Part shown: positions 7,901 to 53,803 of the stretch, one piece after another
Layout of the letters: every line of letters begins with the position of its first letter
How positions within the stretch are numbered: position 1 is the stretch's first letter
Translations under genes and position numbers: made by a program
Assembly: GCF_964204645.1 (NCBI RefSeq)
Contig: NC_134031.1
Span: 14,061,807 to 14,125,806, forward strand
Length of the DNA: 64,000 nucleotides
Direction of reading: 5' to 3'
DNA from: Tubulanus polymorphus
Lineage: Eukaryota; Animalia; Nemertea
The notes under the pieces: generated by a model
The model's database searches: none
What the model was told of the DNA's origin: nothing
The model's input: the letters and a program-made list of their open reading frames with translations, nothing else

Positions 7901-7989
7901 ACCGTTCGTTATCAAAATTGTACCCGTTAGAGTTGAATTGTGAAGTTACAGAATCTGAATCTGCTATCTTACCTGATACAGTTACGTGA
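4939..7989 (+). pseudogene. BEL/Pao gag-pol pseudogene
   Basis: LPKLQLPMFGGNILEWPSFWDLF (gag), C..C..RHHTSLH knuckle, LLDDGSHRSFI (aspartic protease), YSVKLPWK and FRRVLFGATCSPFLLN (RT), APWHGGFWGRMVG..E and RFWSRWQKEYL..R.RW (integrase and C-terminal domain). Many frameshifts and stops. Confidence 0.92.
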
Positions 7990-21545: not shown

Positions 21546-22443
21546 TCGTCAAAGTAGGTAAAAATCAACACTTGGCGATTTTTTTACGTGTAGTATTTTT
21601 CACTGTGCGATGCGATGAATTATTAGAATTAATTTTTAAATATTTTGAAATCAAGCTAGCCTAATACATTATTGATCGTATTATTGATTTTTACCAAGGG
21701 GACTTTTACCATTTCGATTTCCAGAGTCACGACTCCCCTTCAGGCATAGCTGTTGATATTTATTTAGTTTGACTTCATTCTCTTAATTGTAAGGAATCCA
21801 GCCAATACTTACATAATTAGTGGGACCAGGACTGTATAGCAATTGTTCGTATAAAACAACAGGACAATAGGATTGCAAGGCCAGGCAAAGCTCTTGGCCG
21901 GTCCGTATTGTCATAGAAGTTCGCTTACACTTCTATGATATCATGGATATTCAGACAGCTAGAATCATTTCTATGGGTGTTTGTTAATTCTTAGTCAATG
22001 AAAAATGACTAATACTTCAAAACACAGTCTTTGAAAAAAGATTTTTGAGTTTGAAAAAGATGTTCCAGTCTAGCCTTACTAAATGGGTAATGTAGGTAAT
22101 TTCACATAATAACACCAGCGAACAGACTTGGCAATACATTTCAATTACTACTGACAAAAGCCAGTCACAATTCAATGATACTTGCAATTGCTTTGGACAA
22201 TCCCTAGAGCTTGTCTTGGCAATATCTATTGCCACCAAATTTTGCAACAAAGGAAAAATGTCATTTTTTGTATAGTAGGAAAAAAAATTCAGTTCTTTAC
22301 ATACATATATTTGAGTTGAAAAGATTAAAAGTTAATCAAAAATTATAAGTCTATTGTTAGTTAAATTAAATAAGTAAGTAGTAATTATATTCTGAATGTC
22401 TATTGCATTTTTTCCTACAGTAATTTTCACTGGTGGTATTTTA

Positions 22444-23425
22444 TGACGCCTTATAAAACGTTACCATTATGAAACCTAAACAATGCTAACCATTCAGCGT
22501 CATTTTACAAACGACAACCGTAAATCGATGTGCAAAACGTCACAGGTTTATGTGTACACATACAAGCTATTTGGCAAAATATTATTGATAAAGATGTAGA
22601 ATGGCTCCCTGTGATTATATAATGGCCTCTATGTGAACGCCGGAATGTTATATTGCATTGAATATCATGAATGTTATATTGCATTGAATATCATGAGAAG
22701 ACGTATTGTAATAGTAACAGATGTATGATTATATCAGGAGCGGCAGGCATAAATAGAAATGATAAGTAAATCGGATTATTCGGTTAAATGGCGGATGTAT
22801 ACACGATTTGGAAGTCTGATATAAAAGTCAGACCCTGACATGGGGATGCTAGTGGAATGACGAAGCTATCTACGATCCGAGTAGGGCCGGTGTGAATTTC
22901 ATCGGCGGCTACAAGCGGTCTATATAAAAACACGTGTAAACATATAATTTCAATATTCAAATGTTTTAGAAAATATGCTCGATATTAGGGGTATGCAGGT
23001 TTCATGAGATTAGTAATTTATAATAGCATAACTGTCATATACGGCTCCGCGTCCACTGATGGCATGTGTATAAGGTGACAATTCAATTCAATACTTTATT
23101 GATCCTTATTACATTGAAATTCCGGGATAAAATTCCCAAATTCAATAAAGTTACAAATTTTAAACTAAGAAAATACAAAATACAAGACACACGGGTAATT
23201 CATACAGAATAACATGAATAAGTTATTTAAATGACAATGTCTACTTCAACCCAGACTCAAGTCTAGGATATCTATCGAGTGACAGCCAAACCGGGCCCCG
23301 GGATCCCGGTCGACCGGGCCGGCTAGCTACACGATATGCTCGAAGTCATGATGAAGCAGCCGACATCAGAAGAGCTCTTTCTTCAACCATGGAGGCAATG
23401 AAGTTGCAGACCAGCTTAGAGGCAA
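22444..23425 (+). repeat. ~1 kb direct repeat, copy 1
   Basis: tgacgccttataaaacgttacc...cagcttagaggcaa; collinear with 29333-30240. Confidence 0.95.
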
Positions 23426-26990: not shown

Positions 26991-29332
26991 GTTGTAAAAA
27001 TTTCTGATTATATCAACAATCCGGGGGGATATTTTGTTGAATTTTGACTTTGTCTATTTGCCACTTTTTTGGTCCGTTTTAAAAGCCAGATTTACTCATA
27101 GAAATCAAGCCATTTTATACCAAATTAATTTACCCTAAAACCTGTAAGTATGTCATATATGACCATTCAAGATCCCCAGGGACGTTAACGAACAATACCC
27201 ATCCAGTTAAGATCCCCGGGGCCGCTAATTGGGGCTGTTTGCTGTGAAACGGCATACAGTTACCTGATCGTCGACAGCGGCCATTTTGGAAAATCGCCAC
27301 TAGGCGGATCATTGCGTATTTCTATACTGAAATATGATTTTATCAATCTAAAAACCACAACCATATTTTTTTGGAATGAATATCTGTTAAAGATTTAGAA
27401 AAATGATAAAACGTTCATATATTGACAAGAAGCGCAGCGCAAAAATATAATCAGCAAGTTCACGCACGGTTACTAAGGATACGCAGGTACGCCACTGTGA
27501 AGGGTCAAGGTCAAATTCAGCTGAGCGATTATTCACGTGTAATAAACTATTTATTTATTTTTTGATGATCAATTATTTTGTTGTTTTTTTTTATTTGCAT
27601 TTGATTTGGGAGGTCATCTTGCTTAGGAGTCAGTTTGTCAATGCGTCGAAGCAATACAGTCTAACTCGTTTACGTCTCACTTAAAACGGGGTAGGGCGGT
27701 CATTATATTGCTGACTCCAAACTACACCTATACAGCCTGTGTAACTGTGTAAACTGTGAAATTGTACTTGGCATTAGAGGGATATTGAGGAATTGAATTT
27801 CAGCCTCCTGAGCCCTCGGCTTGAGCAAAAGACCTTAACTGACTACACAGAATTCAATTATGAGTCCCTAGCATTTTCTCAATTTCCGAATGCTTTCATT
27901 GGTTTTAAGATGAGGGGAACCAGAAATTTTAAGTTCCCCACATATTGCAACTGGAAACACATGGCTGGAACACAGCCGATATTTGATTATTCGTTCCATG
28001 TCCATGGCGGTAGCATTATTATCAAAATTATCATGATTAACAGTGCATTCAAGTTCAGTTTTTTACTCTAATTTGATAGAAACTATTTTTACGAGTGGAT
28101 ATTTACTGTAGGGATATAGCCCGTTTTAACTCATTCATGTTAATGGAACTTACCTTCACTTATAAGCTCTTGAATAGCTTGCCGGGCGTGATTCACGCCA
28201 ATAATTTCAAATTCTAATTCATTGAGATTGTTCAATTGAAAATCATAACTATGTACCGGCATGATATTATAGCAAGCTTCAGGGTTCTTGTCAATTGATT
28301 TTTTCTATTATATTCTCTATATGTGGTGAACATTAAGGTCTAAGTTTTGCCAACGTGGTGCTCTGAATTGGTTTTCACGAACAGTGACTGAACACCCCTT
28401 GAAAATGTTCATTGATGGCATCTGTTAGAAAACAGATTTTGTGATTTTGTGATTAAAAAGATCCCAATGGTTAAATAATGACTTAAATTGAATTATCGGA
28501 GACGAAAGCCTTCCTCTACCAGTTTTCGTTTGGGACGTTTTTTAATAGAATAGTTGAAATAAGTAATCTATTTACTTACTTCTCTCGCTACAATATCGGT
28601 AATCCTAAAAATCTTTGTTCGTTGATGATTTCCGAAACCGTCTGGTGCGCTTTAATATTCTAGTTAAAGATTACGACATACGTTCCTGTGATGCCTATAA
28701 TATATGAAAAAGGTAATATTATAATTGGAAGGCACGGCTTTTTGTGCCGAGTTAAAGGTATATATCATGTGATGTCAACTTACCAATATTAGCCCATCCG
28801 TTTTTCCTGGACGCAAACTGCGGATAGTGTCAATAACTGTTGTTGTTCGGTACGTTTTAAGTAGCTGCCATTTTTACATTCGATTCATATTCTATACTCC
28901 ATTTCGTAAGATCCGTGATTATTTTATCATCCATATCCAATAATCGTTGTATCATTAACTAAGTTAATAATCTTTATACTTGTGTGCTTCCCTCCGAAAA
29001 TGCAATTTGATGTCTCACGCCTTATCGCACCCTAAACGCCTAGATTTTATCGCGATTAAACGCTTTTTGTTTAATCACTCATGGCTGCATTCCAAACGTT
29101 TAATATGTCTAAAACATTTAGATCAACGATATTTGCTATCGGACATCTCAATATTCATTCACTACACATGGATCATTGAATAATTAATAATTAAGTGACA
29201 AATAATTATGTTCAATCTATAAATCTTTTTTTTAAAGATGAAGATTCTCTGCATTTTTTCTCTGAAATATCCAAGTCATAATTTATTTGTAAGTGTTACA
29301 GGAGGACTTCTACATGTTGACCGATTCTTTTT

Positions 29333-30240
29333 TGACGCCTTATAAAACGTTACCATTATGAAGCCTAAACAATGTTAACCATTCAGCGTCATTTTACAAA
29401 CGACAACCGTAAATAGATGTGCAAAACGTCACAGGTCTATGCGTACACATACAAGCTATTTGGCAAAATATTATTGACAAAGATGTAGAATGGCTTCCTG
29501 TGATTATATAATGATCTCCATTTGAACGTCGAAATGTTATATTGCATTGAATATCATGAGAAGACGTATTGTAATAGTGAAGGATGTATGATTATATCAG
29601 GAGCGGCAGGCATATATAGAAAGGATTAAGTAAATCGGATTAATCGGTTAAATGGCGGATGTATACACGATTAAGAAGTCCGATATAAAAGTCAGACCCT
29701 GACATGGGGATGCTGGTGGAATGACGAAGCTATCTACGATCTGTGTAGGGCCAGATTGAATTTCATCGGCGGCTACAAGCGGTCTATAAAAAACGTATAA
29801 ACATAATTTCAATATTCAAATATTTTAGAAAATATGTTCGATATTAGGGGTATGCAGGTTTCACGAGATTAGCAATTTATAAAAGCATAACTGTCATATA
29901 CGGCTCCGCGTCCACTGATGGCATGTGTATTAGGTGACTATTTAATTCAATTTATTATTGATCCTTATTACATTGAAAATGCCAAATTCAATAAAGTTAC
30001 AAATTTTTAAAATGAGAAAATTCAAGACACGGGTAATTCATACAGAATAACATGAATAAGTTACTTAAATGACAATGTCTACTTCAACCCAGACTCAAGT
30101 CTAAGATATCGAGTGACAACCAAACCGGGACCCGGGTGGGCTGGCTATACGATATGCTCATAGTCATGATGAAGCAGACATCAGAAGAGCTCTTTCTTCA
30201 ACCATGGAGGCAATGAAGTTGCAGACCAGCTTAGAGGCAA
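29333..30240 (+). repeat. ~0.9 kb direct repeat, copy 2
   Basis: Collinear with 22444-23425; lacks the 26-bp internal duplication of copy 1; ends exactly where the viral hairpin starts. Confidence 0.95.
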
Positions 30241-30300: not shown

Positions 30301-30401
30301 TTTGACCTGAACCCCTGTTATCCCTATTACTCTTAAAATATTCATATATATGAATATTAATAACTTCTAAAATCAATTTTCATCAAAAATTTGATATCAA
30401 A

Positions 30402-30542
30402 ATGGAAGCAAATAAGAAGTACTACTGTCCGTCAGAACAACCACAAACCAACGATATTACAAATAATACTGGGGTTATGAATATTTATTACAAGAAATGT
30501 TCAAAATGTGAATTAGATAAACAACTCTCGGAATATTATTAA
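30402..30542 (+). pseudogene. Small viral CxxC ORF (MEANKKYYC...KKCSKCELDKQLSEYY*)
   Basis: ATG at 30402; the KKCSKC..K..SEY motif resembles zinc-binding leaders of viral HNH/endoVII-type proteins; convergent with the main gene block. Confidence 0.4.
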
Positions 30543-30589
30543 ACGGAAAGTTATGTAACCGGATAATACCAATTGATGATGAAAATAAA

Positions 30590-31698
30590 TTAATCTTTTT
30601 CATTTTCATATTTTTCTTTAAGCTTATTATATTCTTCTAACCCTATATTCCTTTGAATTGTCATTGATTTAATTTTCTAAATGATTCCCGAGTTTATATT
30701 TATTGAATGTTTCTCTTGAAAATATTTTTGGAATATAATTTTCGACTTCATTTTTAGATGGATGTTTATTTAAAAATTCTCTAAAATCATCATGTTTAAG
30801 TTCAAATAAGTTCATTGCATAAGTTACATTTGGTTTAAAGTTATCTAACTTTTTCAAATGGTAACTATATCATTACTCGAGAAATAATCTATAAATGTTT
30901 TTCTATACTACCGATAATCTGATATATTCATTTTATTGAATTTTGTATTCATAATTAATGGATTTTCTATTACATTATCTGTACCTATATGTTTAAATGA
31001 GTATCTATGATTCAATTGTTTATCATATATTACATATTCCCTACATTTTTTACACCAAGATTTAAATACGTGTATTGCATGGGCTGAATCATTTCCACCT
31101 TTGGTTTTTAATTTATAATGTTTTGACCAAGTAGTCTTTGCTATACATTCATTACAGAAGGCACAAAAATTTTGATCTTCTTTGCATTTATCTTTATATA
31201 TATTAGCATATGTTTTTACTAATTTCAAAATATGTTCATCTTTTCTTATATGCAATAAATAATCATTATAATTATCAAAATCTTCTTCACAATACATACA
31301 TCTAATGATATCTTTTGGTTTAACATTTGATTTTTCTATTTTATAGTTAGAGGTAGATGCTGTTACATCTTCTTTTTTTGTTTTAACATGATCTTCTTTT
31401 TTGTTTCAATATTATCTTCTTTTTTAGGTTCAACATGATTTTTTATTTCGTTATCAATATCATTTTCTATTTTAGTATCAATATCATTTTCTATTTTTGT
31501 TTCAACATTATCTTCTATTTTAGATTCAATATTATCTTCTTTTTTAGTTTCAATACTATTATCTATTTTACTTTTTCTATATTTGAATTGATTAGAGAAT
31601 TCTCCAAAATACTTACCATATTCATCATAAGGTATTATATAATATATATCTGATATCATTTCACTTGGACTTTGTATTTCATATATTCCTCCTTCCAT
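30590..31698 (-). pseudogene. Viral zinc-finger protein with 8-aa tandem repeats, frameshifted
   Basis: ORFs 31363..31698 (KIENDIDT-type repeats), 30908..31297 (C..C-x12-H-x5-H fingers) and 30669..30857 appear to be pieces of one gene. Confidence 0.6.
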
Positions 31699-31730
31699 TT
31701 ATTATAGAATTTTTTATTAAAATTAAAATT

Positions 31731-32913
31731 TTAATACATAACACTATTCAATTGAGAATTTATGATATTTAATTGCGCGTCAAATATAATATAAATGTGC
31801 ATTTTATAATTTAAACCTTTCTTCTTTTACATGAATAATTATATTCCATCTTTAGTGTTCTGTAATTTTTTACCGGATCCATGTAATAAGTTATCTTCAG
31901 TGGTTCTAAAATCTAACCATAGTGCATATTTATTACCGGTATAATAATCAATTTGGTTTATATTACAATCTTCAGGTGATTTCATTTTTTCATTCACAAA
32001 ATGTTTTTTAATTTCAAGCCATTGATCAATCATTCTCATTCCCTGGCAAAATACTTTATTAGCTATGCCTTCGATAGTTATTTCTACTTGTGATATATCA
32101 GGATTATAACAATTATCAACATTTATTGCACCATTAGAATATGTTGCAATGGTGAAAAATATTAATATACCTTTAATAGATCTTCTTGGGAAGTTAATAT
32201 TCTCATTAATTATTTCGTCATTTGCATTAATAGTTACAATTTTAAATTTATCAATATAATCATATAATAATGAAAATCCTTCATGATATTGAGTTTGAAT
32301 TGTGTTAGCAATATTTTCATCAGTTACTGTATCATATTCTAAACATATATTCGATAATTTATAACCCATGTCTTTAACAACGCTTGATAATACAATTTCA
32401 TTAACAGGAGCACAAGTTATTTCAAATATAATATCTTCTTGTATAGCATATTTATATAAAGGTGCATTATCATTTATCGATTCAAAATCTAATGGATTTT
32501 ATATTTTCTTCCATAGGTCTTTTTTATCAAATTATCTGTAGCATTAGTTACTACTGCATTATTAGCTTCTGATCTTAATTTAGTTTGGTTTTCTGATTGG
32601 ATGCCTTGAAACATCATATTATTTCTATTTTCTTTTGTTAACTATAAATCTTTGTAATGCGAAAATAAATTATAATCATCTATCTATCGACAACATAACT
32701 GTTATCATGGCCAGTTACTTTTTTATCAGCTGATAAATAAATACTATATGGAACATAAAAAGTATTTTGTGTTAATCGAGGAATTCGAACATATAAAGTT
32801 TCATCAGGATTAATATTAGAAGGATTATGAGTAATTATATGATGAGATCTTTCTGCCTTAATAGCATTAGATATTCTAGAATTCTTAGAAGGATTTATAC
32901 AACTCCCACTCAT
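31731..32913 (-). pseudogene. Major capsid protein (double jelly-roll type), disrupted
   Basis: N-terminus IKAERSHHIITHNPSNINPDETLYVRIP.L..YVP; core YKLSNICLEYDTV, N.PRRSIKGILIFF, YNPDI..VEITIEG, YALWLDFRT..DN.LHGSG; C-terminus DAQLNI. Recognised from memory as a Polinton-group MCP. Confidence 0.75.
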
Positions 32914-32933
32914 TTATTTAAGAGAAAAATTCA

Positions 32934-34645
32934 TTATTTATTTTTTATCATATTCACTAATACAAAAATAATTGCACTTATAACTGTAATTAAAAATAAA
33001 ATTATATGTTCAGCAGCAAAGTTAATAATATTTCCAGCAGATTTCAATATAAAACCAACAATTGATGCTATAACTCCGGGTAAAGCTGCAGCCCATTTTT
33101 TAGATAGTTCCCATAGATATTTTGCTAATTCTTTTAAACCATCTTTAACTTTATCTTGTATTGAATTATTATTTGGAGGTTTATCTGGTCCGGGAGTAGA
33201 TGTAGATTTTAATGAATTTGATATTGCTAAACCAATTGTTGTAAATAACATAGTTACAGCTGTTAGAATTGAAAGAATTGTTATACCTTCTAATTAAAAT
33301 AATAATTTTATTCTATCTTTTAATGATATTTCAGAATTTGGTTTTATCAACAAATCTTTAAAAATAACTTATAATTTTCTAATATGATTAAGATCATATG
33401 ATTTCAATAATATATCTCTTTCTCTTTCCTTTAAATTCTTTTAAAGTCATATTTTAAATCATCAATTTCTTTTTCTAAAGCTAACTTTCTGCTTTCATAA
33501 TCAGCTTCCTCGATTAATTGAAGATCTCTATTTAAGTCTAATTGTTTTAATTCTTCATTTGCATCAGTTAGTTTTTTTTTCTAACATGGTTATATTAGAA
33601 AATCTCATCTTAATATTAGCAATTTCACCAGCTGATTCTTGCATACCTTTAATTTCTCTACGTGCTTGTTCAGGAAATATTTTTAATTCTTCTTCATTTG
33701 AATCAAGTAATCCTTTTTTTAATAAAGATTGCATTCGATTTGTTCCAGTTTCAGTACCAGGTGTATCTAAAATACTATTCATCTCTTCTTCAAATGAATG
33801 AACTGTAACATGCTGTCAAACTGTTTTACTACTTGTAATTGACTTGAACCATTATCAATTTGTTGAATATCTCTTCTCGATGTTTCTGGTGTTGAAGATC
33901 TTAATTTATCTAATCGATCTCCATACTCATCCATTTCTGGATCAACAGAAGTAGGATTTAGATTTGGATTTTTAAATGGTGAATATTTGTTAATATCAAT
34001 ACCAACATTTGGTTCTTCTTCATTTATTCTATCGAGTGCATTCCATATAAGTCTGAGAAATTCTGTACCACCTTTTGAACGTTCAATTGTAGATCTCGCT
34101 AACATTTCAGGATGGTACAGATCTTCTTGTCCCATTTTAGATAATTGAATTGATACAGTTTTTTTATTTAATTCAACATTATAATACCATGAATCATTTT
34201 TAAATTCAAAATTATTCATGAAATGTATGTCATCTTTTATAATTTGTTCTGAAATATCTTCTGGTTCAATGTTATCTGTTACATTTTTTGGTAATAATTC
34301 TTCTATAACTGTATTTTACACTATGTTTTATGTATAGTAATTCTCTTTTCAATTCAGGGTTTTCTGTTCTTTATAATCTATTAATTAAATCTTTTCTTTC
34401 TGGTCTAGTTTTAATTAATATCTCATCGCGGGTTCTTAAATAATCTACTAATTTTTCACTTGTTTCAGTATCATCTTTAAATTCATCATAATCATATAAT
34501 ATAGGCTAGAATCACCTTCACCTAAATTAGTATTATATGCTGCTCCACCATCATTATCAATATAAGTTTCATTAAAATCAGGTTGTGGTTCATCACTTAT
34601 ACCAGGGGCGTCACCAAAAGTATCCATTGGAATATATTCTTCCAT
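32934..34645 (-). pseudogene. Large viral coiled-coil protein with C-terminal transmembrane helices, disrupted
   Basis: Fragments 34448..34645, 33779..34219, 33564..33782 and 32934..33251; hydrophobic GITILSILTAVTMLFTTIGL, AAALPGVIASIVGFIL and IILFLITVISAIIFVLV. Confidence 0.65.
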
Positions 34646-34661
34646 TTATATAATAAAAAAA

Positions 34662-35537
34662 TTAAGATTTAATATAATTAATATTCCTCCTATTACAATT
34701 CCTATACAAGTTATAGCTAATTTAGCATTTTCCTGTGATTTATTATCATTATTACTTTTAATTATATGATGTTGAATAATATCAGTTTTAATATTTTCTG
34801 ATATTTCCTGATATTTTTTCTGATATATGATTATTTATTCCAGCTTTAGTAAAACCTTCACTATTTTCTAAAATAAAATTAATCCATCCATTATTATTTT
34901 GTTGTTGTATATTATTATAGTATTTTGGTAATTTATTCCAATTGAGTGTTCTTATATCTGTATTTGTCATTATTTTTCCAAATTCTTCAGTATATAATAT
35001 TCCTAATCCACCCATTGTACCAATTTTTGCTCTTAAATCATTAATTGAATTAATATTAAAGTCATTACATATTTTATAAAACTTTGATAAATTAATATCA
35101 TTATTTAGTTCATTAAAATATTTCGAACCTAGTAAAGGGCACTCTAATTCATTTAATATTAATTTTATTTGAAAATATGTATGAAATCAAAAAAGTGATA
35201 ATATCAATGGTAAACTTGGTTTATTTAAATGATCATTCTAACTTATATCACACCCTGTTGTTGCGCAATAAACTGCAAAGTTTTGCCAATACTTCATATT
35301 AGATTTTAATAACCATTGTTTTGCCTCATTTAAATTTTTAAAATTAATTACGTTAATATTGAATATATTTTCCATCTTAACATTATAATTATTAGTTTCA
35401 GTAACATAAATATCTAAATTAATTAATGAATTTAAAACTTCATTTCTATATGAAATATCTTTATCAAAATCTATTGCTGGAATATTATATTCAATTGATT
35501 TATCATATTGAAAAGCTTTTGGATAACTAATTGCCAT
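34662..35537 (-). pseudogene. Uncharacterised viral protein with C-terminal TM anchor, disrupted
   Basis: WQNFAVYCATTGC..FHTYFQIKLIL.EL..PL..GWINFILENSEGFTKAG..AKLAITCIGIVIGGILII. Confidence 0.55.
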
Positions 35538-35553
35538 TTATATAATAAAAAAA

Positions 35554-35987
35554 TCAATAAATAATTAATTCTTTTAAAAATTTATCTTGTTCTTCAATTG
35601 TTATATTACCATTTACACTTATAATCTAATGTATTTTTTAATTTATTAATTTCTTTTATATTAGATTTTATTTTTTCTTTATTTCTTTTTATATTCTATT
35701 TTGAACTTATTCCGGTTTAAACACTTGAACTTAATCCTAACACACCAATTGATATAGCTAAAGGAGTTAATGGACTGAATATTGCTAAAAATGTTATTAC
35801 AGAACTTATTGTAACTGAACCACTAATAATGAAATAATGTATAATTATGCTTTTTAAATATTTTTTCTTTTTAACTTTTAAATCATTTTCAAATTCTAAT
35901 ATTTGTTTTTCCAAATATAATTTTAATTTAGTTTTATTTATATCATATCATGAGGAATAATATCAACATTATCAACTTTATTATCAT
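35554..35987 (-). pseudogene. Small viral membrane protein, disrupted
   Basis: KKKKY..IIIHYFIISGSVTISSVITFLAIFSPLTPLAISIGVLGLSS hydrophobic hairpin. Confidence 0.5.
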
Positions 35988-35998
35988 TAGAAAAAAAA

Positions 35999-36418
35999 TT
36001 ACTTATTTGTGAATTTATAAGCAACAAATAATACAATATTTGTTCCACCTAAAATCCAAATTATTTCATATTGTTGTTGTTCTTTACTTGGTCTATAATA
36101 ATCTGATAATTTAGGTTTGTATGGATGTAATTTTTCACGATTTGTTACTGCGTTACATAAACTCATAGCTTCATCAACTGATTGAAAATATCTATGTGTA
36201 ATTTTCTGATCATATGATTCTTTGTTAATATAATCCATATAATTTTGTCTTTTTTCTCTATATTCTTCTGCAGCTTTATTGTATTTCTCTAATGCTAAGT
36301 TATGTCTTCTCTGTTCTGCTAATGAACTATTTTTATCAATATGCTTAAATAAATACCCACCACCTGTAAATGCTAAAGCGTTAACAATTGCCGATCCTAT
36401 AATAGTTGCAGATACCAT
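35999..36418 (-). CDS. Viral 139-aa protein: hydrophobic N-terminus, coiled coil, C-terminal hydrophobic segment
   Basis: Intact ORF with TAAATG start; IGSAIVNALAFTGGGYLF...RRHNLALEKY. Confidence 0.7.
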   Translation of the reverse strand: MVSATIIGSAIVNALAFTGGGYLFKHIDKNSSLAEQRRHNLALEKYNKAAEEYREKRQNYMDYINKESYDQKITHRYFQSVDEAMSLCNAVTNREKLHPYKPKLSDYYRPSKEQQQYEIIWILGGTNIVLFVAYKFTNK

Positions 36419-36442
36419 TTATTTAACAAAAAAATTACGCAT

Positions 36443-36664
36443 TCATATAGGAGGAATATATTTTTGTTTTTCTAAATAATCAATAGTTAAATTAGATAAA
36501 GTAACTGCTAACGTTAATTTTAATATATCATTGATATCAAATCTATCAACATTAACACTTCCAATTTTTAAATACTTTTTTACCACCATTGTATATCCAA
36601 CAGTTCCAACTGATAGTAATGCTCCATAATATAAACCAGTTATTATCCACTTATTATCACTCAT
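36443..36664 (-). CDS. Viral 73-aa small membrane protein
   Basis: Intact ORF with TAAATG start; two hydrophobic segments. Confidence 0.7.
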   Translation of the reverse strand: MSDNKWIITGLYYGALLSVGTVGYTMVVKKYLKIGSVNVDRFDINDILKLTLAVTLSNLTIDYLEKQKYIPPI

Positions 36665-36681
36665 TTATTAATAAAAAAAAA

Positions 36682-37009
36682 CTATCTTCAAAATATTTAG
36701 TTATCTTATTTATGATGATTTCAACATTTATTTCATTACTACTTTTATGATTATCATATATTTTAGATAATATATTTTTAATAATATCAATAATAAAATC
36801 TTCATCTAATTCATTAAAGAATTTCTAATTAAATCAGTAATCTTTACTACACCATAAAATTCTTTATTTAATGTTGTTTCATAATCAAATGTTGTTTCAT
36901 TAAAAATGTAATATTTCTAATATGAGTTATTACATCATTAATGTTAAATTTCATTTCTTTCTCACGTTTAAAATCAAATCCACATACTCGGTCCTACTGT
37001 TATATTCAT
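36682..37009 (-). pseudogene. Small uncharacterised viral ORF, frameshifted
   Basis: TAAATG start at 37009 (MNITVGPS..); fills the gap between the penton-like gene and 36664. Confidence 0.45.
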
Positions 37010-37025
37010 TTATATAATGAAAAAA

Positions 37026-37642
37026 TTACTCTTTACATCTTATAACTAATTCATAAATTACAGGAAAGTTATTTAAATCAATAAAGTAACCATTATGATT
37101 TCTTACTTCTAATTTAAAATTATTAAATCGTGAAATACAAGGTTTGAAATCACATTCAGCTAAATTATAACTCATTTGAGTTCCAAATTGTTTAACATTT
37201 TTTAATGGTAAAATATTTAATATACTAGAATTATAAGTTGTATCTTTAGTTGCTTCAAATGTTTTTGTATGATCAATTTAATTGCAATAAATATAAAAGT
37301 GTGTAAAAGGCATTATATTTGAATTACCGTCTATGTTTCATGTAACAGTATCTGGTGCAATTCCTAGCAATCTAGCTAATGGTTTTTTGCCATAAATGCA
37401 TTTTGACTTTTATCATATACCTTTATTTTAATTTTATTTGTGCTAAACCATTTATTTAAAAGTATTATCTTCAATAGTTTTATCCGTATATTATAAAAAG
37501 AATTACATAAACTTACATTTACTAATTTTAATTCTACAGAATTCTTAAATTCTCTATCTAGTTGTACTAGTAAATTATGAGATTTAGAATTTAATAGTTT
37601 TTTAGAATCAACATATATTCTATATTCTTTTAATTCTACCAT
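37026..37642 (-). pseudogene. Minor capsid (penton-like, single jelly-roll) protein, disrupted
   Basis: IYVDS....S.N..VQL....VELKLVNVSLCNSFYNI N-terminus; FYIYCN, SILNILPL, FKLEVRNHNGYFIDLNNFPVIYEL C-terminus. Confidence 0.7.
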
Positions 37643-37656
37643 TTATTTTACATATT

Positions 37657-38022
37657 TTATTCAAAATCTATTTCATGGTGCATTTCATGGTGCCCTTTTT
37701 TATTCTTACCTTTATATATGAAATAGAAATCACCTGAACATAATTCCTCTAAATCTTCACTAGATAATCTATGAAATCTGTGTGGTAAATATGTTCTGAA
37801 TTTATATCTATTTCCTTTCAATCCCTCATATTCTAAATGAATAACTAATTCATCTCCATATTTGTTAGTAACTTTATCAATATTTGTTATTAAATATTTC
37901 TTATGAATTGTTAGTTCATTTAACTTCTTAAGTTTATAATCTACTGATTTAGCATTTGTGATATCTTTTATTCTATCTAGAAATGATTTATTGTTCTCAC
38001 TGTGTTCTTGTTTACTCTCCAT
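37657..38022 (-). CDS. Viral 121-aa protein, possible OB-fold ssDNA-binding protein
   Basis: Intact ORF directly downstream of polB; beta-strand pattern KKYLITNIDKVTNKYGDELVIHL..TYLPHRF..FIYKG. Confidence 0.6.
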   Translation of the reverse strand: MESKQEHSENNKSFLDRIKDITNAKSVDYKLKKLNELTIHKKYLITNIDKVTNKYGDELVIHLEYEGLKGNRYKFRTYLPHRFHRLSSEDLEELCSGDFYFIYKGKNKKGHHEMHHEIDFE

Positions 38023-38061
38023 TTATTATACATATTTTCATTAAAATTGAATTAAAGCCGA

Positions 38062-38990
38062 TTAACATGTTAGAATCCTTTTCATAATCTCATTCTCATT
38101 TGTTTCTTCCCTTTTAAATTTTAAGTATTCATCTAAATTGCAACCATAAGCAACTGTGTGTATACCATCGTCTGAAATATATCTTTTATCATCTCTTCAA
38201 TAAACATTTCATGATCTTTTGATTATACACATTTCATCTTATGTTTTCTAACTTCTTCATTGAATATACAATTGATGTAATCTTTGAAATGAATATTCTT
38301 TTCTAATACACTTTTTGTAATACCTTTCAACTTTTTAGCTTCATGAGTTTTAGTTTTATAACTATACATTTTAGATCGAATACCTATAAATTCAATCATT
38401 TCTTCACCTCCTAATTCATCCTTAAACTTTCCTGGCACCTTTTTATTATCATTGTTTAACAATTCTTGAGCTTTTGGATAATTACTAAAATCAAAATGAT
38501 GTTTTAATGTTTTTAAATCATCTGTTATGTTATTAGTTTTTATCTTTAATATATATGTAAGAATCTGTATCAAAATATAAGATTTCTATATGCTTTTCGC
38601 CAAAATGAGGTTATAATACGTTATAATAGAATTCATACATTAGTAACTTTGATATTTCTAAAACTGTTGCTCAAACATAAATTGGTTTATTAATTTTCAT
38701 TGATGTTCTCCTCATTTTAAGTGCAGCTAAATTTTCATCAAATATTCTGTTACCAATGAACTTAGGATATGTTTGTAAATGTCTTATTCTTTTACCATTA
38801 CTAACTAACTCAATATCATTTCTATTTCTAATATTTTCACAAGTCTTACCATAGAATGCATTATTCATTAACTTGAAGAAATCTTTCTCGAAATCAGTTT
38901 TAGCTTTAGTTCTCTGTTTGCTGTTAAAATCTATATATTTTTCTAACCATTTAGATTGACTGAATGATATATATCTATGTACATTTTTTA
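38062..38990 (-). pseudogene. Protein-primed family B DNA polymerase (pPolB), C-terminal part, disrupted
   Basis: KYIDFN..RTKAKTDFEKDFFKLMNNAFYGKTCENIRNR (motif B), DTDS (motif C), KKVPGKFKDE..EFIGIRSKMYSY, KLKGI, DKRYI....TVAYG. Confidence 0.95.
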
Positions 38991-40837
38991 CAGTGTAGAA
39001 GTACTTTCTGTAACTTTTCTTTTATGTAATAGTTATGACTGTATTTCTGTATTGTATCTCTTTAGTAAAGAACTTAAGTAAAACTTATATTATTATATAT
39101 ATATTATTAATTCAAGACCTTGTAAAGGGCTACTGACCAAATCAGTCCATAACATATGATATAAGACATAGGATATAAGGGATGATCGACTGCGCACGAA
39201 ATGCCAGCTGACTGTTGTTCGTTATGAACATCATACACTTAATCTTAGTATGCCCTTTTTGGGAAAACTATTAGGCAGACCTACATAAAAGAATACTATA
39301 GGAGAAACCGTAGTTTAGTCATATTTCAACAACTTGAATTCCTCTGGTAAGATGCATAGTTAACTATAGAAGACAAGGCATAGCCTTTCATCGTAAAATG
39401 TTATAGTAACATAATCATGATGTTTTTTCACTGTCGAATTATATACACTTAGCATGTCGTTTTCTTGTATTGCTTTCTTTTTTTCGTATTTATCTGTTCT
39501 GTGCAAATATCGTTTGTTGAGCAATAAACTTTGAAATACAAAAGTTGAAATCTACTATACGTGTTTATATCCAGAGTATCTTCGTATACGGCTATGCGTC
39601 ATCGGTGTACTCAAATAAATGAAAGATTGAAATCAGTGGATAAACATTCTATAAAGGGAGCCATATCAGTACAAGATGAATTTCCATTTTGGATCAGACT
39701 GGAGAAATACAGAAAAGACTTTGGAATCTAATAATGAAACTGTATTAATGTTTCAAAGGGGAACTAGCAAACTTAGCAGGGAGTATCTAACCACAACCAG
39801 TAAACCAGAATGTTTGAATAATATGAGAATGTATGGGTCCAATATTTTGGGTGTTGATGTTAAACATGACTTAATGTCTCTAGGCTTAATACATGTTTTA
39901 CCACTTATTGTGATGGGAAAAATGCTGGTAGATTGATTGGGTGATGTTGCAATCTGTAACAAAGGAGATACAAACTTTTTCAATCTTGTGTTTCAGTTCT
40001 TACTTGCCAACGTACCTAGCAGTGACAATAATTACAGTCAACCTAGTAAATTATATCGTTTTGATGATGGCAAAGGATCTTTCCGAGTAAGGCCTTGTTC
40101 AATGAACCATCCGATTAGACCATCATTTCAGCATGATAAAGATGATTCTGTGAAGGTGGCACTTTCATCGATCAATTGGAAATCAATTTCATGTAACTTT
40201 CATGCTTTTCAGGAATTCAGGCGGCATTTGGATGCCCTCAGTTGAAATTTATGTTGCGACCATTAGAAACGGCTCTGAAATGTGTCATGAGAGCATGGGA
40301 CAAGGAATCTCAAAGATGCTTTGGTAAAGCATTTAAAACATTTTATAAACCTTATACCCGATCATGTCATGTCAGCTATATGACTACATACTGGTTTGAT
40401 TCCCACTGGTCTGATTCATTTACTGACAGAAGACTTTACTGTATTCCACCAGAAGACCGGCGTAATCAATTGGCCATCACCGCCATTATCACCGAAAGAA
40501 AATTCCGAGGTGTAGAAGATACATACCTAGAGGACCATTTAAACAGACTTCTTTCTTATACTAGACCACTTTAGTCGTCAAATTATATTGTGGAATAGGA
40601 TTCCGATCTGAAGGCCGAGTCGCCCGGATATTCGGGCCGGTTCAATTCGGCACTCCGCGGTGCGGTCCGTTCGGGTGCTCCCTCTTCAGGCGGTTATTTT
40701 TCAACTATTCGAACGATAAATTTCACGGGTATTAAATCCCTCTTTTTAAGTTTTTAATGCTCGGTTCAGGCCGGAATTCTAATTAACTAATTTATGATGG
40801 AAAAGTTAGATCGAGCGTCGTTGTTGACAAAGTTAAT

Positions 40838-44145: not shown

Positions 44146-45289
44146 AATAGTATGTTTGATAGAAGTGTTGCATAGTAGTGTGAGTTCTATTTCCATGAAT
44201 TTAATTTTGTGCTGTAGATGGCTCAGAGTATTTGTCTGCACTTTTTGGGAACCTTAGTTACGATGATAATACTGATTCGTGTGCAAAGCAGGATCAAGTA
44301 AGTGAAAATAGGGACTCCTAAAAAAAGAATTACTGTTTGTACTTATAACATACATATCCAGTGGCTGGTTAAACTGGTGTGAAGTAAAAATCTGTCACGT
44401 AGGGTACCGGTATGCAAAATATTATTTCATTGAAAATCAAACAAGAAAAAATATATATAAAAAAGAACTCAATTTTGATAAGTGTGAACTTTAATGATAA
44501 CTGACTTTTAACGAGAATGAAATCTTCGAAAAATTGATTATGGGCCTTTTGTCTGAACAAATGTTCATAATTGTAATATCCCTTGAATGATGTAAAACAA
44601 CTAAAACTATGAGTGACCCGATAAGATACGGTACAAACTTGGTGTGAGCCTGGGTTTCATCGGAGGTTTTTTCATTTTTATCATACGGACCAATCAGGAC
44701 AGAAGCCCCCAAGTTCTTCAAATTTCAGGCCAGTCAGTGCCGGTTACTGACGACACAAAGTTCATCGACTGACATGATTAATAATAATTTCACGATAGGA
44801 TCGCTTTAAGTTGCTTACATCTTCACTCAGACAAATTGTTGTTCCGCGCGACCTACACCGTGGCGCGTGTACTCTATAACTGATACATACACGCAGTGAA
44901 CACGAGAGTATAAGGCTATATAGCCTACGCGACAACACACAACTGTTTTCAATGCGAACGCTCCACTGTGCCCCAGTTAACAAACTAATACAAATAATCA
45001 GTCTCCAAAATGGATCGCTAATGCGAAAATTGATAAAATGACTTCAATTAATGATGATAAAACAAGTATTCCAGCCGTGTTAATATCAGACTCATCTCTA
45101 AAATTCGCTGCTATCAGTGAATCAGCCGTGCGGTGAACACGGAAGTAAATTTCCGCATTTTGAAACCACATTTTCGTCAGATATCTTGATGCAACGTTAC
45201 CTTATGCACAGGATATCGAAATTAGACACATCGCACACAATAAATCGTTATATCATACGCCTTGAATATCAGTATTTTCGCCAGAAATG

Positions 45290-47359
45290 ATGTTGATACA
45301 TGTTATGAATCACTCGGAGGATATTTCCTGTAATTCCCGTTAAAATTAATTTATGCCACAGTGCTTTTCTCCATATTGTATCGAATGCTTTTTGGTAATC
45401 AATAAATATACAGTAAAGCTTCCGCTTATTACTAGTCAGAATATCTATAAGGGAATGCAATGTGAAAATATGGTCCATGACACTACGATTTTTTCGAAAT
45501 CCAGCTTGATTTTCATTCAGTAATTGGTTATCCATCAAAAACTCCTCTAAACGTTTATTAATCAGGCTCGTAAACAATTTGCTCATACAGCTTAATAGAG
45601 TAATTCCTCTGTAGTTATCCGGATTGGAAGGGTCTCCCTTATTCTTAAAGATTGGAGTGATAATACCTACAGCCCACTCTTCCGGAATGCAGCCAGTTTT
45701 CAAAATATTGTTAAACAACAAAACGAGGGTAGGCATGATTTCATTTTCTGCAGTTTTGAGGAATTCGTTTAAAATTTCGTCGTTTCCAGTGGCTTTATTA
45801 TTTTTGAGGCATTTTATACATTTAGATATTTCTCCCTCAGTGATTAGCCTATTAAGTGCATCATCATTGTGGTCATGAAGGAAGTCATTCACATTGAAAA
45901 AATTACGATTATCATTTTCTGCACTACGGTTTTGGTTAATGACGGAAAAGTGGTCAAATAAATCATCTAGCGACGCTTTACATTCATTTGGTTTTTCCTT
46001 TCGGAAATATTTCCAAAAAGCTTTTGGATCGTCTTTTGCTAACTTTCCTATTTGGTCATTGTGCAATTTAACTTTCTTTTGTTTTGGTATCTTTATCGAT
46101 GTTTTATACCTCTTATACGCCGAATTCAGATTAGTTCTATTTTGGACGGATCGATATCTTTTATAATTTCTTTTCGCTTTCCTATAAATTCTACGGTCTC
46201 GTTTCACTTTATAGTCATGTAACAAAGTTTTTGGTTTGTCAAAGTTAACCCGGCTTCGGCCCATTGTGGCCCCTGCCGCCTTATTTAAAATGTCGCATAT
46301 ACGCTTATTCGCACAGGCGCTGTCTATTATATCATTTTGAAGTTCGATATTTATTTTATTCAATTCGGTTTGGTTGATTGCCTCTCTAAAAACATCGCTT
46401 CGACCACTGTTCCATTTAATTTTACCTGGTATGTTAGGCATGTTTTGTACATTTGTATATGGACTTCTCGTGTGTGAAATAGAGAAGGAACACGTAACAG
46501 CACAGTGTACGTCTGAAATCATTTGGTCATAGTCGTTTACATTGAAGTTCACGCATTTTGACAACAAATAGGGAGACATAATAAAGTAATCAATAACATG
46601 GTTATTTTCCCCTTTGATGCACGTGTACTCACCGATTCCTTTATCCCTACCTAATCTGCCATTTGCAATGAACATGTTGTGATTTTTACAAAAGTCTAAC
46701 AAACGATAACCCCAATTATTGATAGAGGAGTCTTTGTTTTTCCTATTGAGTAGACCTTGTATTTTTAGTGCATCAAGGTTATGACGATCTTCCACAAAAA
46801 CTTCGTCTAGGCCTAGGAATTCCATGAGTATTTCGTCATGGGGTAAATAGTCTAATAACTGCTTTGTGTAGGCATTGAAATCGCCACATAGACAAAAATA
46901 AGCATCGGTAGAACTCATTCGGTTTATAACGTCAGTGTCGAGTTCATCGAATAAGTTAATATTTCCATATCTACTAGTTTCTGGGGGAATATATACTCCT
47001 CCAATTAACAAATGTTTTTTCCACCCTAGGAATCTCTTATCAATTTCAATCCATTGAATGATATTGGTTGATTTATGAATAGTTTTAATATATCTGTTTA
47101 GACTTTGCTTAAAAGCAACCAGGATTCCCCCAGATTTCCTTATAGCTAGATTTGATCTGTTATTCATGACTACTTCGTAACCGACACTTTTAAAATACTC
47201 TTTTACCCACAATTCATCGGAATCATCAAGTTTGGTTTCAGAAAAAACTAAAATATCAGCTGACTTGCATAAACTATCAAACTCTAGAGTATATGATCTA
47301 GATTTCAAACCACAAATATTCAGACACAGGATACTAATTTCTCCTGGCTCGGCGCAATC
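45290..47359 (-). CDS. LINE ORF2: APE endonuclease + N-terminal RT, 3'-truncated
   Basis: ILCLNICGL, SETKL, GGVYIPP, CGDFNA, IDYF, SDVHC (APE); NYRGITLLS, NQAGFR, FIDYQKAFD (RT). Homology stops after HNMYQ. Confidence 0.93.
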
Positions 47360-48613
47360 CTATTCTGGAGCTGTTGCTAGCGGTTGGGATAGATGTAATC
47401 CACTGTCCATATCCAAGACGAACCTGGCGTCTCGGAGCGCTTCGTTTACTGATGATTGTTCAGGTTCAGACGCTACTCTGGCTCTTTTTTCCGGAGGTCT
47501 AACGGTATCCCGTTTACGATTTCCAGCAGGCGCGGTTTTACGGGTGCGCGATTTCGTAGAGTTGGTCAGTGTGGCGTATTCCTTGCGGCTGGTTGTTTCG
47601 TTCGCACCAGATGTTGCATCATTATTAACAGCAACTTGAAGTGGCAGGGTAGGTGAAGCTCGAAACGTAAAACCAGAAAAAGTACTTTCATCACGGGAAG
47701 GGGTTACATCGGGCTCTGTCGCTGGGGTTCGGTTTCTTTGAGCCGGCGCGTTGCGGTTTATCGGTTGCCTATGTGGCACGGAGCGACTTATCAATCGCCC
47801 ATTACTCGCTATTTTAAGTTCTTTCTTGGCTTCTGGTATAAAATCTAGAACTCTTCGGAAGTTTATGTCATTGAGACGTTCCGCATGTGATTGGCTTGAT
47901 CTCAACCAGACATCAGTGAACTTAGGATTTTTTCTAAGATTATGTTTCTTTCGCAAGACATCGATTTTAATGGCTTTTGTTTTCAACGCGACCTTTACAA
48001 GCGGATTTCTCTGACCATTTCTAATCGGCAATTGCTTGTGAGCTGTGATTGCTTGTTTATGGCCAAGATAGTCAAACATTTCTTCGCATGTTTTTTGGAG
48101 ATCAGATTGGAATTCTTTCTTCAAGTCGCTCAAGATAATGCAGAGTTCTGCACAGTCTAGTGGGTCGGGGCAGTTTGCAGTGAGGCCTGAGTTCACTTGG
48201 CACTGCAGCTCTATGCAGAGGCTTTCTAATTTATTTATATCTGCCCTTGCGGCTTTAAGGCTTGTGGTGAGGCTGTTTACTTTCCCTGATGTGAAGTTCA
48301 AGTCTGAGATCAACTTTTGATTTTCATTTTGAAGGTCGTCGTAGGATTTGCTGGTGTATTGAACCGAGTCAGCGAGCTCGTCGATAGTTTTTGATTGGTT
48401 TTGTAGTTTTTCATTAATACTACTTATGTCAGTATCATGGACACGAACTGTGGTTTTCAAAGAATCGAAACTATCGGTCATTTGTTTCTGCTCAAGTTGA
48501 ATATCATTCAAGCGCTTCATGATGTCAGCGACTGAGCTTTTCATAAAAGATTCAAAATCTGATACTAAGTCTGATTCTGGTATATCACCAGAGCATCGGT
48601 TGTTTCGTTCCAT
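47360..48613 (-). CDS. LINE ORF1 (coiled coil + RRM-like/Tnp22-like domain + disordered tail)
   Basis: Long heptad region, then PLVKVAL..K..VLRKK.NLR....VWL; immediately upstream of and in frame with ORF2. Confidence 0.85.
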   Translation of the reverse strand: MERNNRCSGDIPESDLVSDFESFMKSSVADIMKRLNDIQLEQKQMTDSFDSLKTTVRVHDTDISSINEKLQNQSKTIDELADSVQYTSKSYDDLQNENQKLISDLNFTSGKVNSLTTSLKAARADINKLESLCIELQCQVNSGLTANCPDPLDCAELCIILSDLKKEFQSDLQKTCEEMFDYLGHKQAITAHKQLPIRNGQRNPLVKVALKTKAIKIDVLRKKHNLRKNPKFTDVWLRSSQSHAERLNDINFRRVLDFIPEAKKELKIASNGRLISRSVPHRQPINRNAPAQRNRTPATEPDVTPSRDESTFSGFTFRASPTLPLQVAVNNDATSGANETTSRKEYATLTNSTKSRTRKTAPAGNRKRDTVRPPEKRARVASEPEQSSVNEALRDARFVLDMDSGLHLSQPLATAPE

Positions 48614-51526: not shown

Positions 51527-53803
51527 TAGATAGATAGTTTATTCTTAATCAAAGTGTATACTACACTTGTATGACAGATAATCAAAATTACAAATCTTAA
51601 CAAAATAATTTAGTCAAAATTACATCTTGAAAAAACAGAAATATTTAGTTGATGGGGTAGCTATATTTACTCGGTTTGGTCGCCTCGAAGCATTTTCTGT
51701 CTACTGAACATTGAAATCAAATATCTTCCAACAGATCTAAGTTTTCCGATTGAATTAGTAGTTAGAAGTTGAATAAAATTTGCCATGCTAGGATGTGTTC
51801 TAAAATAACGAGGTAAGAGATTACTTCGAAGCGAGTTGTATGAGGGGCAGGACATGAGAACGTGATATTCGTCCTCAATTTCGTCAGTGGAGCAAGTTGT
51901 ACAAGTGCGGTTTTCTCTCGGCGTTAAGGGCCTGGTCCATCTACCTGTTTCAATCCTAAGATCGTGACTGCCGCATCTAAATTTAGAGATAAGGTTAACT
52001 ATTTTTGTGTCATTAATGTCAAGGTATCGTTCGTATACGAAACTTCCGTTGAAATATCTATAAAGATTGCACTTAGGGCTACGTTCTAAAGCCGCCCTCC
52101 ACGACTGAATGTAATGGTCTTTCAACCTTTGTTCGACGAGTTTTAAAAAGAATCGATCATTTTGAACTTCTTGCGCTAGCCAATAATTGCCGACACCTAG
52201 GCCGTTAAGGAAGTCACGCATTTTTGAGGCCCAGTTACAGGTGCGCGGGCTGTTCTGAATATCACCATAAAGCAGATTGTAAGTTTGGCGTAAAAGTGTG
52301 TTCTCCTCTGACCGCAGAATTTTTAACCAAAACTTTGCTACAGAGATTTGTATATCTATAGACAGAGGGAAACAGCCTAGTTCACCGTAGACCATTACAT
52401 TCGGTGTCGTGGCGCGCACATTGAGTATGTATTTACAGAATTTGACATGAACGGATTCTATATTTCTAACATTTTCCAATGCCCAGATTGGGCTACCATA
52501 CATTAATACTGATTTCACTAATGAATCAAAGATATCAAGCTTGGTTTTAGGTGAAATGAGTCTCGCGTTTAGCAAATACTTCTTGAGTCCAAAGCAAGCT
52601 CTTGTACCTTGATCGGCCTGCGACTTGATTGCAGCAGACATTTTGCCGTTATTTGACATAGTAATGCCAAGGTACTGAAAGGTTGACACCTCTTCCAGTA
52701 GGACATTGTTATAAAAACATAAAAGGGGGTTACGGTTATTTCTACGGTACCCAATTTTCATTGTCTTTGTCTTATCAGAATTCACAGATAGTTTCATCTT
52801 TTTACAATAATCATGCAGAATATCAAGCGCACCCTGCAATTCTCCGGGCGATTGGGCTAGAATGACGGTATCATCGGCGTAAAGCAAGACATATAGTTTG
52901 AATAAATTAAAGTCAATGCCTGAATGGCCATTGTTTATAAAAAATTCTTCATGTCATTAATATAGATATTGAAAAGTACAGGCGAGATACAGTCGCCTTG
53001 CCTTACGCCGACGGTGCAGTCAAAAAAGCTAGATATGAACCCATTGTTTTTGACACATGATTCACTGTTAGCATACATAGATTTAATTATGTCATAAACT
53101 TTGCCAGTGATACCAGCTTCCAGGATCTTTTTCCAGAGAATGTCGTGGTTCAAATAATCGAAGGCCTTAGAAAAATCTACGAATGCCATACACGCATTTT
53201 TCATTTTCTTCGTTATACAGTGATCGATGATTGAAGACAATACAAAGGATTGATTTATAGTACCATTATTTGGCCTAAAACCGGCCTGTGCATTATTTAA
53301 TACTTGGTGTGCCTCTAACCATTGTATAATGCGTGTATTCAGAATAATTGAAAATATTTTTCCGAAGCAGCTCAAGACGGTGATACCTCTATAATTGTTT
53401 GGGTCGGAAGTCATCCCTTTCTTATGAATGGGTGCAATGCAGCCACTGCTCCAATTTTGTGGGTAAATACCTGATTGAAGGATGACATTGAAAAAAATGG
53501 TCAGCACAGGTGTTAGGGTTTCAGAGGCAGTTATAAGCATTTCTGGTAGGATATTATCAAGACCCGGTGATTTGCCTTTTTTAGATTTCTTATCGCTCTT
53601 ATAACTTCATCTCTAGTTATGGGGATGTCTAGATCGTGAGGCATATTAATAGCTTCCGTATCATTTTCATTAAGCAAAAGATCAGGATCAATGTCATCGT
53701 TTGATTCAGATTGAATTATTCCGCGAAAAAAAGTTTCGATACAATTCTCATTCTTAGGATACGAATCGGTTGATTGAATTCGGTCATTTAAACTACTGGC
53801 TAA
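51527..53803 (-). mobile_element. 5'-truncated RTE-X-like LINE with TSD
   Basis: RT motifs GVRQGDCISPVLF and LYADD, C-terminal CCHC. AATAAA then a (CTAT)n tail at 51527-51543. 11-bp TSD tttac(t/a)gtggt at 51516-51526 and 53804-53814. Frameshifts near 52930 and 53590. Confidence 0.92.

Follow-up and report, generated by a model that had tools for sequence, protein, structure and literature searches.

Introduction

Helper-promoter mimicry is already known from the virophages of protists, where mavirus-type elements and Gezel-14T share promoters with their helpers (10.1101/2025.10.09.676808; 10.1101/2022.07.28.501842), and poxvirus-associated Polinton-like viruses (PLVs) are likewise known (AHEV_PLV1, AHEV_PLV2, CBEV_PLV1 and Ca_PLV1), with reports from entomopoxvirus occlusion bodies (PMC11296320). 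In vaccinia late promoters a TAAAT overlaps the start codon, usually with G as the next base, and the 10th nucleotide upstream is a conserved T; the intermediate promoters are A-rich upstream (PMC11980589), and slippage at TAAAT yields 5' poly(A) leaders (PMC6211774). Animal Polintons and PLVs could be autonomous or helper-dependent, and a strict clade-specific promoter offers a direct test of this; no helper is named in passages of 10.1101/2024.03.23.586382, PMC11097642 and PMC8400408. Here we analyze a stretch of 64,000 nucleotides from the nemertean Tubulanus polymorphus (assembly GCF_964204645.1, contig NC_134031.1, positions 14,061,807 to 14,125,806; below, the window, with positions counted from its first letter), which holds a decayed copy of a multicopy PLV with the hexamer TAAATG at nine of its ten minus-strand gene starts. 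We consider helper-promoter mimicry in an integrated animal PLV to be the best reading of this real, inherited motif, and a probable one. In our literature search, which covered few subscription papers and no bioRxiv supplements, no work turned up that describes promoters of pox type for a PLV integrated in an animal.

TAAATG at the gene starts of the window element

The element lies at approximately 30356-39200 (minus strand, about 8.9 kb, 24% GC), its approximate ends being drawn from the drop in GC, the tblastn map and read depth. A preliminary description, made from the sequence alone, had placed a PLV at 31696..38050: the capsid, penton, ATPase, pPolB (protein-primed DNA polymerase B) and rve evidence from the window and its relatives bears out the assignment to the PLVs (Polisuviricotina). 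A probable plus-strand start at 30402, outside those coordinates, was missed.

Nine of the ten minus-strand starts read TAAATG (38022, 37642, 37009, 36664, 36418, 35537, 34645, 32913 and 31698), all as first described and confirmed by direct reading. The tenth, at 35987, reads CTAATG; it had been described as looking damaged, and its orthologue in the relative on contig L001 (L001:2541) does start with TAAATG. Of the 235 other ATGs on the minus strand of 30356-39200, 12 follow a TAA (Fisher p 3.7e-10); the host flanks have 2202 ATGs, 64 of them as TAAATG, and base composition upstream of the window starts gives a binomial p of 1.4e-9. TAAATG at these starts is far above chance, in line with the earlier remark that nine out of ten is hard to put down to composition alone. 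For six of the nine, tblastn to intact relatives confirms a true start (38022, 37642, 36664, 36418, 35537 and 32913); 37009 and 34645 are backed by gene order, the former also by the likeness of its N-terminus by eye. Counted from the A of the ATG, a T occupies -12 in eight of the nine. Runs of 5-9 T are present at six starts, as had been noted, and the other three have an A run; the T runs end at -9 to -12, i.e. 5-8 nt before TAAATG rather than about 7-8 nt, and the fixed feature is the T at -12. Two further claims, gaps of about 10-35 nt and the lack of introns, agree with the six measured intergenic gaps (11-32 nt) and with the L001 orthologues, which as read from sequence are single open reading frames (ORFs). 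The features are listed below; F-numbers (families) and the clade letters A and B are labels of this analysis.

38125..39057, minus: C-terminal fragment of pPolB, in pieces (frame changes, stops), with 35-67% identity to the pPolB of relatives
37657..38022, minus: intact ORF of 121 amino acids, orthologue L001:125; start TAAATG preceded by an A run (-16..-13) and a T (-12)
37026..37642, minus: penton (minor capsid protein), broken, 57-68% to L001:565; start TAAATG with an A run and T at -12
36657..37009, minus: broken small gene, syntenic with L001:1333, N-terminus similar by eye; start TAAATG with T6
36443..36664, minus: intact, conserved hydrophobic protein of 73 amino acids (F7), 87% to L001:1733, family in 27 loci; start TAAATG with T9
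35999..36418, minus: intact conserved protein of 139 amino acids (F4), 72% to L001:2014, family in 34 loci; start TAAATG with T7
35557..35987, minus: broken hydrophobic protein with damaged start, 75-78% to L001:2541
34706..35537, minus: broken conserved protein of about 440 amino acids (F5), internal part missing, 74% to L001:2996; start TAAATG with T7
32934..34645, minus: broken protein of about 485 amino acids with hydrophobic C-terminus (F2), 68% over the C-terminal part to L001:4328; start TAAATG with T7
32911..32930, minus: promoter-like element at the capsid gene, with T box at -16..-12, spacer and TAAATG
31731..32913, minus: major capsid protein with a double jelly roll, split into three pieces, 65-76% to L001/L004; start TAAATG with T5 ending at -12
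30908..31698, minus: variable gene, broken, containing a tandem repeat of 24 bp and a Cys/His-rich C-terminal piece; start TAAATG with A6 and no T at -12
30402..30542, plus: probable short gene remnant; start CAAAATG, not TAAATG, with an upstream region resembling that of 38022

The capsid gene's layout of T box, spacer and hexamer recurs at 37009, 36664, 36418, 35537 and 34645.

Inheritance of the signal within capsid clades

Relatives were collected through a capsid family of 57 proteins, and the best 80 of 179 confirmed relative loci were kept. Scoring took in core genes other than pPolB, of at least 70 amino acids, if they had 30 nt of upstream sequence and a first ATG no more than 12 residues away from the family start. 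A quick tree built from 55 capsids recovers clade A, to which the window capsid belongs (SH-aLRT 99), and clade B (SH-aLRT 100), with L079 as a separate long branch. TAAATG is found at 29/30 homology-checked starts in clade A (10 loci; two further loci are without a usable start) and at 15/17 in clade B plus L079 (8 loci), versus 97/1863 and 43/1142 of the other ATGs of clades A and B respectively. Among the other loci below 30% GC it is found at none of 15 starts (5 loci, two of them near-identical), and at loci of 40% GC or more at none of 183. Other loci below 40% GC have it at 5/41 starts, all five in L046, L058 and L073, whose capsids are too short or unlabelled for the supported tree, and which were later pooled with clade B by motif, a circular choice. 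The motif persists at 36-44% GC (L005, L006 and L045). The sister loci are the proper control because the rule by which an ATG after an in-frame TAA is called a start applies to them too. Hence, the motif is kept in intact relatives and absent from AT-matched sisters, and we conclude that the TAAATG signal is inherited within capsid clades, with three changes of the label needed on the capsid tree.

The inherited unit is larger than the hexamer: in clade A a T box at -16..-12 (66-96% T) is followed by a spacer and then by TAA (96-100%). T is found at -12 in 96% of clade A and 82% of clade B starts and at -13 in 76% of clade A, and -3 is T in 44/47 starts of both clades, as against a purine in 33/41 of the other AT-rich loci. 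The A runs and T runs hint weakly at a split by gene into intermediate and late classes (ATPase A-run in 5/8, capsid T-run in 12/16), and the class switches between orthologues, 38022 and 37009 both differing from their L001 counterparts.

The capsid has no relatives in viral_contigs and no sequence match in PDB; two relatives in genome_contigs have TAAATG at 0/7 starts each. Among 120 of about 850 viral-contig stretches scanned for the motif, 8 loci contain at least two TAAATG starts. Short contigs filed under Bartonella sp. names carry the capsid proteins of one clade A cluster (P0007); they probably come from an animal host or vector.

Geometry of the signal and motifs of the sister clades

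Judged by sequence, the geometry of the motif in the window and its clade fits that of a vaccinia late promoter: the conserved T lies at the 9th-10th nucleotide upstream of TAAAT (-12 and -13 in clade A), against the 10th in vaccinia. Ranavirus polymerase promoters are reported to contain TAAAT and asfarvirus late genes to have a layout of TATTT plus TATATA (PMC5294985), and TATA use at asfarvirus late genes is described in PMC7163114.

Several sister loci contain motifs of their own. In L036, L011, L056, L017, L055 and L078, TATAGA is found in 10/18 upstream regions versus 0.6 expected; in L036 it often follows a TTTTCT box, resembling the asfarvirus late layout with its late initiator TATA. 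In a group of 34 GC-rich relative loci (L013-L070), which are related to each other and hence not independent, TTGAA is found at varied positions in 56/145 upstream regions of 50 nt, with 10 expected. This suggests that the PLV family as a whole uses promoters other than those of RNA polymerase II (Pol II); the sister clades are therefore weaker as a nuclear control, while still valid as a control for composition. Depletion of internal signals does not separate the groups: TTTTTNT has an observed/expected ratio (O/E) of 0.36 in clade A versus 0.47-0.71 in loci without TAAATG, which is not discriminating, and the same goes for splice-site depletion.

A probable promoter for a helper polymerase and its alternatives

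Our favored, probable explanation of this decayed PLV is that T box, spacer and TAAATG are a promoter read by another virus's late RNA polymerase, that of a poxvirus-like or other large cytoplasmic DNA virus infecting the same cell, which would make the element a likely helper-dependent satellite. Under this scheme copies would sit in the nucleus through the rve integrase, where host Pol II would read them poorly. In a helper-infected cell the DNA of the element would reach the cytoplasmic factory; there the helper polymerase would start in the AAA of TAAATG, with slippage adding a 5' poly(A) leader directly onto the AUG as in vaccinia. pPolB would then replicate the DNA, and capsid, penton and ATPase would package it. 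What is observed is the gene content, the many copies and the motif with its geometry and inheritance; helper dependence, this start site, the leader and packaging are inferred. T at -3 is a poor Kozak base, and it would be kept because the proposed poly(A) leader joins the AUG directly. The helper itself is possibly a poxvirus or close kin; another nucleocytoplasmic large DNA virus (NCLDV) is a somewhat less likely candidate. The relative on L001 encodes a deoxynucleoside kinase with a full T-box TAAATG start (L001:10343-10981, E 2e-31); this was considered as a pointer to the helper and set aside, with four close relatives and no named viral source.

Several observations weigh against this explanation. 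The hexamer does not name the helper, because it is also used by a non-pox icosahedral NCLDV clade (L203-L252, with Capsid_NCLDV and VLTF3), at 145/639 first-ATG starts of which 43% have T at -12 (50 loci, near-duplicates included), and because a poxvirus stretch (Pox_LP_H2, NPH-II) gave only 8/18, four of these with T at -12. The initial proposal is supported in part: the PLV assignment, the excess over chance, the inheritance and the late-promoter geometry stand, and helper dependence, a 5' poly(A) leader and a poxvirus as helper are predictions. Some NCLDV-clade gene families have TAAATG at 7/7, 8/8 or 9/13 starts, the last of these with a T box, and the capsid gene there has AAAATG; PLV clades A and B are stricter in TAAATG use than both this clade and the poxvirus stretch. 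The motif counts come from related loci and so are not independent; the plus-strand start at 30402 is without the motif; no pPolB start was validated in clades A or B; TAAAT is shifted off the ATG in 2/3 full-length integrase starts; and no early promoter was seen. The element is present in tens or more of copies, a number that implies integration into the germline, for which nuclear access is needed. AATAAA is undepleted in the coding strands of clades A and B (O/E versus synonymous shuffles 0.92 and 1.16), but the AT-rich sisters are alike (1.03; GC-rich 0.79) and the test does not discriminate. Clade A, finally, is seen as incomplete elements only, and may conceivably have had a polymerase of its own. 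As an observation in its own right, the starts of the L203-L252 NCLDV loci could belong to an undescribed late-promoter class.

Explanations that take the hexamer for something other than a promoter were weighed on a set of 98 ORFs in 23 loci, 77 of them starting with TAAATG. That TAAATG reflects stop-start coupling, AT bias or the calling of the first ATG after a TAA is the least credible of all the alternatives: an ATG after an in-frame TAA will always be called a start and the element is 76% AT, but the same rule gives 0/15 in sisters below 30% GC, the motif is kept at 44% GC, the starts are homology-checked, the T at -12 is left over, and the TAA is the upstream gene's stop in only 2/77. 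Nearly as improbable is that the hexamer is the upstream gene's poly(A) signal packed onto the next start codon with the T run as terminator. AATAAA does end at the A of the ATG in 28/77 and ATTAAA in 9/77, 6/9 window starts read AATAAATG, and most gaps are short; however, 40/77 have neither, in 19/77 the neighboring gene is divergent, and the motif keeps its place at the ATG over tandem gaps that vary from -140 to 499 nt. Divergent pairs, variable gaps and the rare use of the stop therefore tell that the motif is anchored to the ATG and not to an upstream stop or poly(A) site, and together with the sister-locus counts these start-context data lead us to largely reject AT bias, stop-start coupling and poly(A) overlap. 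Between F2 and the capsid gene of L043 and L051, two divergent genes separated by just 14-15 nt both start with TAAATG, so that their promoter-like elements overlap on opposite strands.

Two further alternatives accept a promoter and differ on the polymerase. Transcription by host Pol II in the nucleus, starting at a compact initiator of unusual type and possibly aided by an activator that the element encodes, is unlikely; TAAATG would then be a lineage-specific promoter or translation context with no more than a resemblance to the poxvirus signal. It gains from the integrating, multicopy nature of the family, from the nuclear lytic PLV TSV, from the other fixed motifs of the sister clades, which could be element-specific, and from a weak VLTF3-like ORF in one of them (L036). 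It is opposed by the T at -3, by the undepleted AATAAA (3.1 per kb of clade A coding strand) and by the lack of any transcription factor family among the clade A and B proteins scanned. TATAAA ends at the ATG in 21/77 starts, which would seem to favor it; however, a Pol II TATA box lies 25-30 nt before the start site (PMC5294985), and a TATA touching the ATG is hence unable to serve that gene. A poxvirus-related RNA polymerase of the element's own, or of a companion linear element, with no large helper needed, is improbable to a still greater degree. The yeast pGKL elements do have TAAAN as initiator, poly(A) leaders and a transcription system related to that of poxviruses (PMC6211774), and the incompleteness of clade A leaves room for missing genes; but no polymerase, capping enzyme or helicase family was matched among the element and relative proteins scanned, the relatives of 11-18 kb are already taken up by known core genes, and the yeast elements use an early-type upstream sequence and not a T box.

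Returning to the helper-promoter explanation, a broader version can be offered tentatively: clades A and B of a widespread integrating PLV family would be virophages, endogenous in invertebrates other than insects, whose helpers are poxviruses or close kin, with promoters marking the hosts of an undiscovered poxvirus-like virus, and the family would have switched helpers, leaving clade dialects: a pox late-like one with TAAATG, an asfarvirus late-like one with T box plus TATAGA and an early-like one with TTGAA. If the helper-promoter explanation is true, the virophage strategy, perhaps with an antiviral effect, also operates in the germlines of animals, and the motif can serve to look for cytoplasmic DNA viruses of invertebrates that have so far escaped notice.

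Gene content, copies and surroundings

The observed gene set of the window copy comprises a double jelly-roll capsid, a penton and a pPolB fragment (DNA_pol_B_2 E 6e-5, under the curated cut-off), most long genes being broken; by the tblastn map this copy lacks the A32 ATPase, the integrase and the 5' portion of pPolB, and the genes present are colinear with those of the relative on L001. The relatives supply the A32-like packaging ATPase (Pox_A32 E 5e-11 in L001; family in 48 loci), the integrase (rve E 2e-10 in L001, as rve-chromo) and pPolB. No adenovirus-type maturation protease family was found among the proteins scanned, the scan covering part of the ORFs of long loci. The capsid family is a double jelly roll by structure prediction: the model of an intact relative (P0002, pLDDT 90) matches iridovirus and PBCV-1 capsids (Foldseek E of about 1e-16) and mavirus (E 2e-11), its best fold matches being NCLDV-type capsids, with adintovirus and MELD entries at ranks 29 and 45. 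The gene at 37642 is likewise assigned by its predicted fold as a penton with a single jelly roll; the model of L001:565 matches the mavirus penton (E 4e-10) and superposes on the PBCV-1 capsid chain VIA (Z 11.9, root-mean-square deviation 3.0, 130 aligned).

For the other genes little similarity was found: the 121-residue ORF has 37 relatives and no Pfam or PHROG family, F5 has no Pfam or Atlas match, tblastn gave no match for 36657..37009, and 30908..31698, without a homologue at its start, has only a weak match to L004:2461 (E 0.03). Within the same PLV family, L036 encodes a Bcl-2 family gene (L036:2448-2858, E 2e-18) and the VLTF3-like ORF mentioned above (L036:6543-7049, E 6e-4, below the cut-off).

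The host has tens or more of element copies, diverged from the window copy. In the raw reads of run X4, depth climbs over the element, reaching about 770-840 over the capsid bins versus 3-15 in the lowest flank bins, and most element reads are 90-95% alike; read joints link 30433 and 38018 on opposite strands. Neither terminal inverted repeats nor a target-site duplication were found in the truncated window copy. At its left edge, 30322-30335 (minus) matches over 14 nt the start of what we take to be the I-SceI recognition site, probably by chance. The flanks are a repeat-rich animal nuclear genome, with long interspersed (LINE) elements (RVT_1), pieces that by eye are like long terminal repeat (LTR) retrotransposons and piggyBac, and a high-copy repeat present twice (45269-48613, 51667-53540, 4939-7989, 9303-10198, 22439-23425 and 29328-30240).

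Comparison with known systems

The published group nearest to the window family, set beside it by description, is probably that of the animal PLVs outside groups 1 and 2 of the Maverick-Polintons (Polintoviricetes), such as Polinton-3_NV, N1A_NV and octocoral, hydrozoan and bivalve elements; these are integrated in animals and have pPolB, with a capsid or ATPase nearer to PLVs than to Mavericks (10.64898/2026.06.19.733378). For these, passages of that source, of 10.64898/2026.10.13.758929 and of PMC11131425 contain no promoter analysis. The PLVs of entomopoxviruses are, like the window family, small jelly-roll PLVs of animals; they are proposed poxvirus hyperparasites, and one is integrated in an insect genome (PMC11296320). 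Their genes encode an L2 mu-like protein and a protease of adenovirus type, and in two of them no integrase was detected, whereas the window family has an rve integrase and, among the proteins scanned, no protease match, and judged by eye their capsids look unlike those of the window family. The terms promoter, motif and TAAAT do not occur in the main text of PMC11296320, which has no promoter analysis.

As to the signal itself, the poxvirus intermediate and late promoters share with it the TAAATG over the start, a patch rich in T that includes one about 10 nt upstream, and a further class that is A-rich; unlike in poxviruses, nearly all genes carry it here, in a small integrating virus whose scanned proteins include no polymerase. 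The yeast pGKL1/2 elements also have a pox-like TAAAN initiator, and are cytoplasmic linear elements (PMC6211774). Unlike the window family, they encode their own polymerase and capping enzyme. To our knowledge they have no capsid and do not integrate. Mavirus and Gezel-14T (PgVV) differ in their protist hosts, mimivirus-type helpers and other motifs, and their dependence has been established by experiment where here it is proposed; together with the endogenous mavirus-like elements, they nevertheless offer a parallel, as integrated small viruses carrying a helper promoter motif, and the predicted fold of the window penton is closest to that of the mavirus penton.

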